From contig JAPEUG010000175.1 of assembly GCA_026025795.1 (NCBI GenBank), positions 1 through 33,909 of the forward strand: a DNA stretch of 33,909 nucleotides. Reading direction: 5' to 3'. The notes beneath the pieces were generated by a model that was not told the DNA's origin, did not search any database, and saw only the letters and a list, made by a program, of their open reading frames with translations. Source of the DNA: Thelocarpon superellum (Eukaryota). A program made the position numbers and the translations under genes. Positions 24,989 to 33,909 of this stretch are shown here, in pieces (the first letter of the stretch is position 1; each line of letters opens with the position of its first letter).

Positions 24989-27496
<2,508 letters not shown>

Positions 27497-28380: not shown

Positions 28381-31182
28381 ATGGCTTCATCTCCGCCCCA
28401 CGATGAACAGACCACAACCTTCTTTGTGGGTCAGCACGAGACCAAACGAGTGCTGCCCGTCACCGGCGCGATGCTGCGCCAAGCACAAGATAGTGGGGTG
28501 AGTGGCGTTTGGCAAGGCGGGCGCGCGTGACGAACCGCAAGCTGATGGAGGAGCAGTATGACATGCTGACGACTCCGGTCACGACCCCTCATTACCACTC
28601 TCGCGTGCTGGCCCTGCTGTCCTCCCATCTCTCGCAACTCGGCGGCGTCGGTAACGGGGCAAGCAAGAAGCCGTCGGCCGCGCCCAAGTTCCCCACCCCC
28701 GTCATTCCACCCCTGAATCCTGTCGACACTCCGCTGTCTCCCTCCTCCACCATCTCGCAGCTCCTGGCCGTCGCCGCACCCTGGACCGATCTGTGCTCCC
28801 CCGACCCGCTGATTGCTGACCTCTCACGCCAAGTGCTTCGCCAGGAGGTGGCGTACGCGGCCTTTTGCGGCATCGGAAACATTATTCTCCCTGCGCCCAA
28901 GCTGCACCATCGTGACGTTCATGGCCGGGGCCTCACGCAGTATGGGCGGGCCGTGCAGGAGAGCCTGGTGGCCGGACCATATCTGGCCATCACCATGCTT
29001 CTGCCCATGACGGACCATCCCGACACGGATCCGGTCGAGGGTGTTGGAAACCTGGCCCCCTTTGCCCGCGAAGACTTCGTCGAGGAGGCCGAAGGTCAAG
29101 AAGGGCGGAGAGCCGACATCTTTGGCACGTGGGACGGGTGGAACCTCATCAGGACCGTGTGTAACTATAGCCCGAGGCTGTTTGTAGGTGAGATGGCGCG
29201 TCAAGAATGCGAAGCTGATCAACCGCTCGACCGCTCAACTTGCCCCCCGTCTCAACATCTCTCCGTGCCCGTCTGGCGATGATGACCACTGCTGATCGTG
29301 GCGGTGACCCACACAGGCCTCAGCATCCCTCGGCACCTCCCTCCAATAGCCGTCCAGAGCCGGTGGTTCTCCGAACCTCTACGTCTGATGGCCTTGGATT
29401 CAACCACTTTTCTGCGAAATAAGAACCACTACCCCGTCCTAGGCAAATCCCACCAAGCGCTCGTAGCGCGATACATGCGGCTGCGCAATAGTCCCTGGAT
29501 TCTCTTGTGTGACGTTGGACCCATCCCCCATAGCACAGGAGCGGGAGATGACGCCTCCACCCCGGTCGATGGCTACCACAGTTCCACGGGCAGTGGTGAC
29601 ACCAGCGGCGGCACGCCTACCCCATCCCCCAAACTGGCCCTCGTCGAGACCAACCGCTCTACGCTCGCTGAGGCCGCAGCAGCAGCGACGGCTGCGGCAC
29701 GAGCATCGCGGCGCTCCTCGACCGCCAGTCCCTTTGAGGATCCGCAGGCGCAAGCACACATCTACGCCCGCGGCGGCACCCCTATCAGCGCCACCAAACC
29801 GCGCAAAGACCCGACGCCGCATCTCAGCTACATTCGATTCCTGTCCCGCTCGCAGCCGGCCCACACCACCATCGAGCGCTTCGGGGCCGGATATCAGGAT
29901 TATTTGCAGGCGCCACTTCAACCACTCACCGACAACCTGGAGAGCATCACATACGAAGTGTTTGAGAAGGATCCGGTCAAGTACGACTGGTATGAGCGAG
30001 CGATGGCGGCGGCCTTGTCCGACTTTGACGACCAGAAGCTCAAAGGATCAGGGCCAAACGGAAAAATCGTGGTGGCTGTCGTGGGTGCTGGCCGAGGGCC
30101 GCTGGTCAATCGTGCGTTGAGAGCCAGCCTCGCCGCGGGGGTCAACATGGAGCTCTGGGCGGTGGAGAAGAACCCAAACGCCTTTGTCCTGCTGCAGCGG
30201 CACAACGAGTCCGACTGGGGCGGGCGTGTCAAGGTGGTAAAGAGCGACATGCGGTCATGGAAGGGACCGCCGCTCCGACCTCAGCCGGCCGTTGACGTTG
30301 ACGACCCGTACGAGAAGAACGGCGTGGACGGCGGATTCGGGCGCGTCGACATCATGGTGTCAGAGCTGCTTGGTTCCTTTGGCGATAACGAACTCTCGCC
30401 GGAATGTCTCGATGGCGTGCAGCACGTCTTACACCCCGAGCACGGCATCTCCATCCCAGCCTCCTACACGGCGCATCTCACCCCCGTTGCCGCACCCCGC
30501 CTTCACACCACCATTAGCTCTCGCGTCGCTGCCGATCCCACTGCCCCGGAAACACCTTACGTAGTGATGCTGCACGCGATCGACTACCTGTCCACGGCAC
30601 CAGTCCATCCAACAGCTTTTTCCCCAACCACCGCGTCCACTTCCTCCCCCGCGCTCCCGCTTCCCCTGGTCCAACAAGCCTGGGAGTTCGCTCATCCCAA
30701 TCCTATCCTTTCGACCCCCCACACTGACAGCCTCGCGTCCAACGCCCACAACACTCGCTTCGCCCACCTACGCTTCCCCTGTGCCGCGCGCGGCTCCTGT
30801 AATGGCGTGGCGGGCTACTTTGAGACGGTGCTCTATAGCCATGTTGAACTCAGCACGCGCCCTGACACCATGGACGCGAAGAGTGCCGACATGATCAGTT
30901 GGTTTCCGATCTATTTTCCTTTGAAGGTGGGTTCGCCTCTTCTCCTCCGCCGTCTTGCCCTACCCTACCCCGTCCTCTGCTAACATGATCCACGCATGCA
31001 CGAAGACACCGCTCTATTTCCCCGACTCTTCCGAACTAGACATCAGTATCTGGCGACAGACAGACGACCGCAAGGTCTGGTACGAGTGGATGGTAGAGGC
31101 GTTTGTGGTGGTAGATGAGCATCGCATCCGTCTTGGCTCCTCGGAATTGCATTCGTCCAAGAAGAATGGGTGCTTGCGATGA
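28381..31182 (+). CDS. PRMT5: Type II protein arginine methyltransferase PRMT5 (Skb1/Hsl7)
   Basis: Exons 28381-28497, 28557-29187, 29317-30926, 31006-31182. QEVAYAAFCG, YQDYLQAPLQPLTDNLESITYEVFEKDPVKY, VVGAGRGPLV, VEKNPNA, VSELLGSFGDNELSPECLDG, SWFPIYFPL, KVWYEW. Confidence 0.96.
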
Positions 31183-31560
31183 TATTAGAGGAGTCCTCCT
31201 TTAACTATCCATTTGATCGAGGAGGTGATTTTGTCGAACACCCCCCTACCCCCTCCACCCAAGCGTTCTCGTTCGTCCCTTTCGCTTGATTCTGGAACGC
31301 CGGCGGCGCAGACTTTGGGCGTGCGCTATGCTTTATAGCAGTCTCCACATGTCAGGATACGAGGTTTCTGGGCTGGTGAGGGACAGGCTCAGCCTGAGGC
31401 TGTTCGTATATACTTACATCCTTCTCCTGACCTTTCGACACATGACCTCTATATCACGGCTCTTCCAATTCCCTCCCCCTCATACACGCTCCCCACTCAT
31501 TCCTCCCACCAACGTACTCCCGTCCATCCACCAACCCGTCGCCGACTCCATCCAACCACC

Positions 31561-31617
31561 CTGTCCCCGTTAGCAACGCTCAAGACCCAGAAAGGACACA
31601 CTCATCTAAAAAAAAAG
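31561..31617 (-). other. Telomerase RNA 3'-processing signals: U-rich Sm-like site plus 45-nt terminal intron with non-canonical 5' splice site
   Basis: Minus strand: CU9AG (31617-31606), then AUGAGU (31605-31600), branch point GCUAAC (31574-31569), 3' splice site CAG (31563-31561). Confidence 0.8.
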
Positions 31618-31888
31618 TAGTGCCGTCCCTTCCCGTCCGCGAAGACGAAGACGAGAAGAGACAGCTGGGGTGCCTCCTCCTCGGCACATGGAGATTCCTT
31701 CCCTCAAATGGCACCTCCGCCACCAATCGACACTTCGATTCGCCCCCGCCGTGGCTCCGTCCGGTTCGAAAGCGTGCTTCTCGTCGCGTGTCCAGCTCCG
31801 ATCTTGTCTCGTTCTGCGTCGCTCGGACGTCTCGCTTTCTCGTCGCGTGAAAGTGCCAGTGGGTTCGTGTCTGGTCGCAAGGGCGATA

Positions 31889-31945
31889 GCAGGAGCAGAC
31901 AAGCACAAAGCTTTGAGCCTCACCCGAGAGAGGTCCCGCTCCTAC
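31889..31945 (-). other. Telomerase RNA CR4/5 three-way junction (P5, P6, P6.1)
   Basis: P5 GUAGGAGCGG/CUGCUCCUGC; P6 GACCUC..GAGGCUC; single A linker; P6.1 AAGC-UUUGU-GCUU; GU linker. Confidence 0.85.
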
Positions 31946-32364
31946 CCATCGTGCAACCCTCATGTCGGGACGTGAGCCGTAGCATTTCCACTCGCTGAGA
32001 TCCCGAGATGGTGTCCGACGCGTCAGAAAGTGGTGAGCGTTAATCAGGGCTGGACATCGAAGATTCACTTCTCGTAGACCGGAGGCTGGTTGGACTGCAA
32101 GAAGAGGCGAATCTTGCGTCGTACGTTGGAAAGGTGATATCATCAGGAGTGGAAATCCTCGGAATTGCTCGTTCTCCGTCTCTCATATCTAATGCCACCC
32201 GGACGGTCCAGGAACATCGCCGCGAGTCGATTTCGTCCTTCCTCGAATCGGTCATCCCTCCAAGATGCTGTCGTCCATGCTGTATTGCACACTCCCCACC
32301 GTCGACCAGGACACCCGAAGGCGCCTGAGATTCTTCTGTCTGTTCGTATTGGCGGTACCCTCAG

Positions 32365-32465
32365 GGACTAGTCTTTGCTTCCTCTTCCGTCGAGCTGCCA
32401 TGGAGATGACACCGTCGAGAAGGGCATTGAAAAGCGGGCAAAGGACATCCTCAAAAACCGCTTTC
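32365..32465 (-). other. Telomerase RNA pseudoknot candidate
   Basis: S1 GAAAGCGG/CCGCUUUU; loop UUUUUGA; S2 GGAUGUCCUUUGC/GCAAAGACUAGUCC (bulged). Confidence 0.72.
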
Positions 32466-33683
32466 GTCTCCATTGAGGAGGTAGACATCCGCTCCGTCTG
32501 TGACGACAGCGTGGATCAAGTGTCGACGCTCACCTGTCAACCCCAGTGCAACCCACAAGAGGAGGCGATTAACGCGGCTGATCGAGACCCCAGCTAGGTC
32601 CCTTCGGACCGAGCCGGGCCACATCGTATGGCTACTGCCTCAACGTGGGTCCGGTGAGGGAGCTTCATCATGAAGATGATACGGATGAGGATTGAGGTGG
32701 ATAGCCGGGCCATAAACAAAGCACCGTGGTGCCCGCGAGGTGGGGAGAAAGGTACGGGACGTCTTCCAGCTGCACCAAGTCCACTCCCGGGTCAACCCAC
32801 AATGAGCCACCGCCCCTTGCGCACCCCAAGACCGAAACCGCTAGACACCTCGGAGTCCCGCACACGGTCCTTCTGAACACAATCGACCATCTCTCGATCC
32901 GTGCCACTCTCTACTCGACCAGATGAAATGAGACGACTGGAACGGACGTCATGCTTGATCTGACCACTCCACACCCGCTTTCCTTGTATGTTCAAAGCCA
33001 TCGGACGTGCTCGTCGCGGTACCAATGATGAAGCGGTGAGCTCCAACAACGAGTACACAACGACGATCACGAGCGATAGCAAAGACAGTGCCACGCTGTA
33101 GCGATGGCGAAAGCAGGCCTGAAGTGTTCTGTTCGTAGGCAAGTATCGTGTGACCGAATCCTGGACGTGTTCATGTCTCATCTCAGCCGGGCAGGAAGAG
33201 AGTGGCAGGGTCGAGAGGGGTTCGGTTATTGAACAAACAGAAGGATCTTGTCACGAGACAGGCCATTCGGCGATTAGGACCCGCAAAGGGGGGTTGCAAA
33301 CAACGACGGCCATCGCAGAGGAACCCGAGAGCGACACGGTCAGCATCAACGGAAGATCCCAAAGGCGGTCCATGGCGAGCCACGTGCCACCCGACCTTTC
33401 TCACCGACTATCGCTCAATGACTTCCTGCCGTGCTCCACATCAACAAGACATCCCAAGATGATCAGAGTATGGTGTCCAGCCATAGACAGCGACGCATTC
33501 TGTTTCAAGAAATGCATGCCATCCATTCTTTGACGCCGAGAGGCTCTGGACGTCAACCTCCCCTTTCGTACCTCTCGCATAGGCTTGGGCAGACGAGGCC
33601 CGTCGCGAATGCAAGGGATTAATCGAGGAGGCGACAACTGTGACGCGAAACTGGTCTTCCGTGGGGAAGAAGTCGACGATAGA

Positions 33684-33692
33684 TTAGGGTTA
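33684..33692 (-). other. Telomerase template 5'-UAACCCUAA-3' (1.5 repeats complementary to TTAGGG)
   Basis: + strand ttagggtta; lies 2 nt downstream (minus sense) of a 15-bp helix. Confidence 0.85.
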
Positions 33693-33909
33693 AGTTCCGA
33701 CACCCATCCTCCCATACCACCACGTCCAAAGTGACATCGCCAGTAGAATCTGTGCATCCGAAGAGACCATGCCATGAGGCTCGTGGGCCAGACTCTACGG
33801 CAGATGCCCGGGTAGATATGGGAGGCTTTGAGGCATCCCGGCACGAGGCAGAGAGATGAGTGCCGGAAGACTATGGGAAGGGCGAGCCGCGGTGTGGTAT
33901 AGCTCCCTC

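Follow-up and report, generated by a model that had tools for sequence, protein, structure and literature searches.

Does the 57-nt stretch at positions 31889–31945 of this Thelocarpon superellum contig form the three-way junction of a telomerase RNA (TER), and how much of the case rests on its likeness to the human P6.1 hairpin? The window, by which we mean the whole stretch of 33,909 nt that was analyzed, had previously been given a sequence-only reading, in which these positions were described as a vertebrate-like CR4/5 domain with a typical P6.1 hairpin. We examined the fold of the stretch, its relatives in metagenomes, its relationship to the Rfam telomerase family of ascomycetes and the gene in which it lies.

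The flagged stretch folds as a P5/P6/P6.1 junction on the minus strand

The string quoted in the sequence-only reading, A-AAGC-UUUGU-GCUU-GU-C, was found as the reverse complement of plus-strand positions 31899–31914, which places the feature on the minus strand. Folding of the minus-strand 57-mer (31889–31945) yielded a 10-bp P5, a short bulged P6 and a 4-bp P6.1, bearing out the earlier description of a 10-bp P5 that closes a bulged P6. The fold reached −25.2 kcal/mol (z = −2.98), which was equaled by 0 of 200 dinucleotide shuffles. Two of the 10 base pairs of P5 (31936–31945 with 31889–31898) are G-U pairs, P6 consists of 2 + 4 bp with one bulged C and an 8-nt loop (UCUCGGGU), and a single A (31914) stands between P6 and P6.1. 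The 4-bp P6.1 stem, the 5-nt loop with U at position 2 and G at position 4, and the flanking A and GU were all present as claimed, with the loop L6.1 at 31905–31909, its U at 31908 and its G at 31906. In the window, 20 of 20 junction pairs are formed. The coordinates of the junction and of the other elements of the gene are listed in Table 1.

Table 1. Coordinates of the junction and of the other predicted TER elements in the window, with the basis of each assignment.
Feature	Positions	Strand	Basis
Template UAACCCUAA, 1.5 TTAGGG repeats, in conserved context cggaacuUAACCCUAA	33684–33692	−	Unique in window
Pseudoknot region, U-rich strand CGGUUUUUGAGGA and nested helix	32366–32461	−	Rfam RF02462 Telomerase_Asco
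Whole P5/P6/P6.1 three-way junction, CR4/5 equivalent	31889–31945	−	Fold, window-free covariance model match, covariation
P5 5′ strand GUAGGAGCGG	31936–31945	−	Fold; covariation
P6 stem-loop, GA+CCUC with GAGG+UC	31915–31935	−	Fold, covariation, Rfam P6 columns
P6.1 hairpin, stem AAGC/GCUU, loop L6.1 UUUGU	31901–31913	−	Fold, covariation, Rfam P6.1 columns
GU linker, P6.1 to P5	31899–31900	−	Invariant alignment columns
P5 3′ strand CUGCUCCUGC	31889–31898	−	Fold; covariation
Putative 3′-end processing module	31561–31616	−	Single pattern match; layout in relatives
U9 tract	31608–31616	−	Putative 3′-end module
Non-canonical 5′ splice site AUGAGU	31600–31605	−	Putative 3′-end module
Branch site GCUAAC	31569–31574	−	Putative 3′-end module
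3′ splice site CAG	31561–31563	−	Putative 3′-end module

The frequency of the P6.1 motif was then compared with shuffled sequence. A 4-bp Watson–Crick stem with an NUNGN loop occurs 25 times in the window (both strands) versus 18.7 ± 4.2 in 200 shuffles. If the motif must also carry the 5′ A and 3′ GUC flanks, there is 1 occurrence in the window versus 0.09 expected, and at least one was found in 18 of the 200 shuffles. Taken alone, the P6.1 motif is weak and not significant. The resemblance to human P6.1 that had been put forward is therefore real as a string and as a fold, but, recurring as it does in those 18 shuffles, it is by itself only a lead. That the junction is more than chance follows from homology, covariation and context, and not from its likeness to human P6.1.

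The stretch is a conserved island whose three helices covary

To obtain relatives, 44 metagenome loci were collected using a 25-letter pattern taken from the pseudoknot only, and thus independently of the junction. When a 2.6-kb minus-strand query from the window was compared with these 44 loci by BLAST, only three conserved islands emerged: the template (query positions ~198–236), the pseudoknot (~1439–1575) and the flagged stretch (1967–2020), which showed up to 92% identity over 50 nt; the rest was unalignable. A junction homolog was located 333–568 nt downstream of the pseudoknot start in 39 of the 44 loci, and the junction of the window starts ~520 nt past the same point. The loci in which BLAST found no junction were L006, L009 and L035, which have 26, 348 and 145 nt of downstream sequence, respectively, and L008 and L033. 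L008 (4747 nt) matches the pseudoknot pattern but has no upstream template 9-mer, no junction by either BLAST or covariance model and no Rfam match, and is probably a chance match or something unrelated.

The alignment comprised the window and 38 loci (39 rows, 27 of them distinct); L020, which ends after 29 nt, was left out. The junction segments were found with the window's own junction as the BLAST query, so that the set tilts toward window-like sequences, even though selection of the loci had relied on nothing but the pseudoknot. Across the 27 distinct rows, 89.1% of the cells were paired under the structure of the sequence-only reading, compared with 73.5% in shuffles (reached by 0 of 500), and both sides changed in 13 of 20 pairs. 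The covariation score was 0.502 versus 0.209 for shuffled alignments (0/500), and it did not exceed 0.153 when the partners were slid by 1–3 columns. In P5, 83.3% of the cells were paired and both sides change in 9 of 10 pairs. P6 had 92.0% of its cells paired, with its two inner pairs covarying (UA 18, CG 8, UG 1; CG 19, AU 8), and P6.1 had 99.1%, likewise with two covarying pairs (AU 14, GC 12, GU 1; CG 13, UA 7, UG 5). RNAalifold, run on the alignment, independently arrived at this junction, in which compensation was seen for 11 of 16 pairs. All three helices are thus supported by covariation. Among the letters that never vary are GGAC where P5 meets P6, a UCAA that precedes P6.1 and a GUC that follows it; this GUC, made up of the GU linker and the first C of P5, is identical in 39 of 39 aligned rows.

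A covariance model built without the window finds the junction, and Rfam columns name its hairpins

We built a covariance model, R1, from 25 of the 38 loci using the same structure and excluding the window. Loci L010, L014, L017, L025, L026, L027 and L030 were left out as exact or near copies, as were L032, L034, L036, L037, L038 and L040. When the window was searched (33.9 kb, both strands, filters off), R1 matched 31882–31952 on the minus strand with 65.2 bits and an E-value of 2.1e-16, and the remaining 19 matches listed had at most 8.7 bits. R1 also gave exactly one junction in 40 of the 44 loci: 39 of them scored 59.8–76.8 bits, a range that includes the score of the window, and the shortened L020 scored 19.2 bits. 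The junction of L033, which had been missed by BLAST and was outside the training set, was among those found, and three of the four loci without an R1 junction have no more than 348 nt of downstream sequence.

The curated ascomycete telomerase family, RF02462, behaved differently. In a search of 31000–33909 at E ≤ 10, it matched only the pseudoknot part and gave no match over the junction (31889–31945). Among 4227 Rfam families compared with the same segment at E ≤ 10, only RF02462 and a chance SNORD100 match were returned, and no other telomerase family. Rfam includes a vertebrate telomerase model, and a vertebrate telomerase match was thus absent from this segment at that threshold. We surmise that RF02462 is silent over the junction perhaps because a local piece of ~40 nt can reach only a low score under a model of 1858 positions. 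The covariance-model search that had been suggested as a check therefore came out in two ways, with no junction match from the curated model and a unique match from the purpose-built one.

The link to Rfam was obtained through the relatives. RF02462 matches were found in 17 of 20 loci scanned, with no match in L005, L039 and L008. Five loci (L012, L015, L013, L003 and L034) match the whole model (1–1858) and L029 matches positions 423–1858, these six scoring 677–1229 bits and having junctions that align with that of the window; another 11 of the 20 match only near the pseudoknot, as the window does. In L012, the junction columns carry the Rfam structure <<<<<<________>>>->>>,<<<<_____>>>> with the consensus GACCCAUCUcGAGUUGGAGUC A AAGcUUcGUgCUU, and the P6 and P6.1 of the window align with the L012 columns that are annotated as P6 and P6.1 in Rfam. 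By hand count, the window agrees with the Rfam consensus at 35 of 44 positions, and four of the nine differences amount to two compensated P6 pairs. From UCAA to GUCUG, a run of 21 positions, there is one difference, at loop position 3. By sequence, the junction is homologous to the annotated P6/P6.1 columns of Rfam, by way of relatives that match the whole of RF02462.

The junction lies in a minus-strand TER gene

As judged from sequence, the elements on the minus strand follow the order of a TER gene: template, pseudoknot, junction, and a module composed of a U-tract, AUGAGU, GCUAAC and CAG. The gene begins at or past the end of the window (33909) and extends to ~31606, and the TER is at least 2.3 kb in length. 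Its pseudoknot matches RF02462 with 54.1 bits (gathering threshold 30; E 7e-13) at model positions 1285–1381 of 1858, which is the sole Rfam match at the gathering threshold in the whole window; the model recognizes only 96 nt of the window's TER. The template context stands 794–1301 nt upstream of the pseudoknot in 32 of the 44 loci, and 1232 nt upstream in the window. The window ends 217 nt upstream of the template (33693–33909, minus strand), whereas the start of the Rfam model in L012 lies ~420 nt upstream, so the 5′ end and promoter of the TER may lie outside the window.

In the RNA libraries, a sole match was found, a 165-nt metatranscriptome contig over 31733–31897 with one other letter, whose source could be DNA. 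It is compatible with transcription of the TER over 31733–31897; the sequencing runs were compared as contigs, so that RNA ends, strand and expression level are not readable from them. The two minus-strand ORFs that overlap the TER contained no Pfam family. A PRMT5 arginine methyltransferase gene (28509–30983, plus strand), which extends over two ORFs and is presumably split by an intron, converges with the 3′ end of the TER. Further along, a DEAH-box PRP43-like helicase of 772 aa is encoded at 24989–27307 on the minus strand, and the members of its PRP43 cluster are mostly from Ascomycota.

Downstream of the junction, U9, AG, AUGAGU, 25 nt, GCUAAC, 5 nt and CAG follow one another in a pattern that has one match in the window and was found in 0 of 100 shuffles. 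In Aspergillus, TER 3′-end cleavage by the spliceosome is described, in the cited sections, as involving a pyrimidine tract, an A-first 5′ splice site, a branch site and a 3′ splice site (PMC4299874, PMC3603654). By analogy, the segment 31561–31616 likely serves the spliceosomal cleavage of the TER 3′ end. The AUGAGU is located 292 nt past P6.1, and the relatives have AUAAGU at +160 to +388; of the relatives, 25 yielded a site at the equivalent place, and in every one it reads AUAAGU. The window's site differs from the AUA(A/C)GU form given for TER 5′ splice sites in the same sections of these papers (PMC4299874, PMC3603654), in that A is kept at intron position 1 and position 3 is G. A canonical GUAAGU at +480 from P6.1 (~31417) was also considered as the 5′ splice site and was dropped, since the U9-AG-AUGAGU...GCUAAC...CAG module fits the layout of the relatives.

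Alternative explanations of the stretch

A chance cluster of hairpins in GC-rich intergenic DNA, merely P6.1-like, would be in keeping with how common the simple motif is (25 versus 18.7 expected) and with the survival of its flanked form in 18 of 200 shuffles. It does not account for the window-free model scoring 65.2 bits at the junction and no more than 8.7 bits elsewhere in the window, for the same element at the same place in 40 of the 44 pseudoknot-anchored loci, or for compensatory changes across all three helices; taken together, these observations already refute it, and its remaining probability is negligible. The 27 distinct alignment rows and 21 distinct cores show that the loci are not assembly copies of one sequence. 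We likewise give virtually no credence to the junction being part of a protein-coding gene or a UTR. A 187-aa ORF (31580–32143, minus strand) does span it on the same strand, but this ORF has no Pfam family at E ≤ 0.01, conservation is limited to an island of ~50 nt between unalignable flanks, and the substitutions within that island are paired and compensatory, which is the pattern of an RNA structure and not of codons.

It is also improbable, if less extremely so, that the junction belongs to a duplicated or decaying TER copy, a pseudogene, and not to a working telomerase RNA. Sequencing run X1, from which this DNA may derive, includes a different contig of 5070 nt that bears both a template-like piece and a stretch resembling the junction, the latter with 4 differences in 47 nt. 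A second allele over 31936–32071 is also present in the run, and the window has AUGAGU where 25 relatives have AUAAGU. Against a decayed copy, however, the template, pseudoknot motif, junction, U-tract, A-first 5′ splice site, branch site and CAG are intact and in order, and the R1 score falls inside the 59.8–76.8 bits of the relatives. Near-identical fragments from two other metagenome runs, both moss-metagenome DNA, are furthermore unchanged inside the junction: they carry 1–5 other letters per piece of 150–250 nt and none within 31889–31945. Having weighed these accounts, we hold with high confidence that, by sequence and structure comparison, 31889–31945 on the minus strand represents the template-distal P5/P6/P6.1 junction of a filamentous-type ascomycete TER, the counterpart of vertebrate CR4/5. 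The earlier call of a CR4/5-type junction of a TER has held up, through the island shared with relatives, the covarying helices, the unique match to the window-free model and the Rfam P6/P6.1 columns.

The 5070-nt contig of run X1 has a depth of 62.6, compared with ~133–153 for the window, and matches 31892–31938 and ~33674–33700. It is a second TER, which is either a paralogue or derives from a different fungus present in the sample. Over 31936–32071, the same run contains two contigs of 136 nt. One, at a depth of 91.7, is identical to the window; the other, at a depth of 44.6, shows 6 differences, all of them outside the junction. The pair suggests two alleles or strains.

Comparison with known telomerase RNAs and proposed function

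Vertebrate-like P6/6.1 elements in filamentous ascomycetes were published in 2012–2013 (PMC3592445, PMC3603654), and nine nucleotides shared with vertebrates are mentioned in the cited part of the latter (PMC3603654). The junction is indeed vertebrate-like, as the sequence-only reading had it, yet on those published accounts this is the expected state for TERs of filamentous ascomycetes. In the sections of Kuprys et al. (2013; PMC3603654) considered here, Aspergillus and other Pezizomycotina TERs (RF02462) have the same order of elements as the window, from the template to the GCUAAC branch site. The P6 and P6.1 of RF02462 align column for column with those of the window, whereas the model matches the window's TER only at 1285–1381, the sequence beyond the three islands having diverged too far for it. 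Within P6, the two inner pairs are swapped in a compensatory manner and the bulged C of the window is one position away from the bulged A of Rfam; the loop reads UUUGU in the window and UUcGU in the RF02462 consensus.

The three-way junction of Neurospora crassa, as characterized in the cited passages of Qi et al. (2012; PMC3592445), resembles that of the window in its 4-bp P6.1, 5-nt NUNGN loop, short P6 and variable P5. The P6 and P6.1 of the window together measure ~40 nt, compared with the 39-nt minimal active fragment of N. crassa, a likeness drawn from the published description (PMC3592445). According to the same passages, activity is restored in trans when TERT is combined with the 39-nt P6/6.1 and a template-pseudoknot fragment. 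P5 can be dispensed with, and the L6.1 mutations U1854A and G1856C were made to test the importance of the loop (PMC3592445). For N. crassa, binding to TERT at the TRBD and the requirement in trans for activity are experimentally established (PMC3592445).

Vertebrate CR4/5 (human P6.1, nt 302–314), in the part of the literature cited, shares with the window the P5/P6/P6.1 layout, the 4-bp stem and the 5-nt loop, in which U2 and G4 of the window correspond to human U307 and G309 (PMC2965242). According to the same source, these two human residues show 100% conservation across vertebrates and are required for catalysis, and TERT binding depends on pairing of the P6.1 stem (PMC2965242). The P6 of the window is much shorter than human P6. 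Vertebrate TERs end in an H/ACA domain; the TER of the window, unlike a vertebrate TER, is at least 2.3 kb long and has a putative fungal-type spliceosomal-cleavage module downstream of the junction. The vertebrate likeness consists of structure and a few nucleotides, as the literature already has it.

Budding-yeast TERs also have a template-distal three-way junction in a long fungal RNA. Their junctions, as summarized in the cited text, have long helices, lack a P6.1/L6.1-type hairpin and are dispensable in vitro (PMC3592445). The element of the window is of the vertebrate/Pezizomycotina type and not of the budding-yeast type.

In the window, the ~40-nt module of P6 and P6.1 has the full set of features that the N. 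crassa and human work singles out. By analogy with N. crassa and vertebrates, the function of the junction is most likely that of a second element for binding TERT, at its TRBD, and for activation. The linked P6 and P6.1 would form a second, independent TERT-binding element that acts at the TRBD, catalysis would require the L6.1 residues U (31908) and G (31906), and P5 would only tether the module to the remaining RNA.

The TER of the window is a diverged addition to the established P6/6.1 class of filamentous ascomycetes. It fixes the annotation of a TER gene, giving exact positions to its template, pseudoknot and junction and to the likely 3′ cleavage site, and the comparative set for P6/P6.1 gains one diverged sequence together with ~27 distinct metagenomic ones. 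The established picture is unchanged, vertebrate-like P6/6.1 of ascomycetes having been in print since 2012–2013.

Variation in the L6.1 loop

Whether relatives keep the loop U and G had been named as a test on which the CR4/5 reading could fail. Loop position 2 is U in 25 of the 27 distinct rows, with C in L018 and L021, and position 4 is G in 23 of 27, the exceptions being L012 and L026 (C) and L013 and L031 (U). When the row of the window is subtracted, 24 of 26 distinct relatives have the U and 22 of the 26 have the G, so that both were largely kept, an outcome that favors the CR4/5 reading.

The loops without G are UUUCU in L012 (2836–2906) and L026 (2120–2190) and UUUUU in L013 (2120–2190) and L031 (1120–1190). 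These four related loci represent three distinct alignment rows and one copy with one N, and L012 and L013, the two of the four that were scanned, exceed 1200 bits over the full length of the Rfam model. The loop G is reported as essential for both N. crassa and vertebrates. As loops without G occur in TERs that match the whole model, this G is perhaps dispensable or replaced in some filamentous fungi. We advance only tentatively, and with more doubt than belief, the joint proposal that this is so and that the AUGAGU-type TER belongs to a possibly undescribed lineage.

The length of L6.1 also varies (alignment columns 45–49). It is 5 nt in 12 distinct rows, the window and 11 others, and 4 nt in 15 of the 27. 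The published consensus, as worded in the cited section, is NUNGN (PMC3592445); beside this 5-nt form, the 4-nt loops observed were CUAG, UUAG, UUCG, UUGG, UUUG and UCCG.
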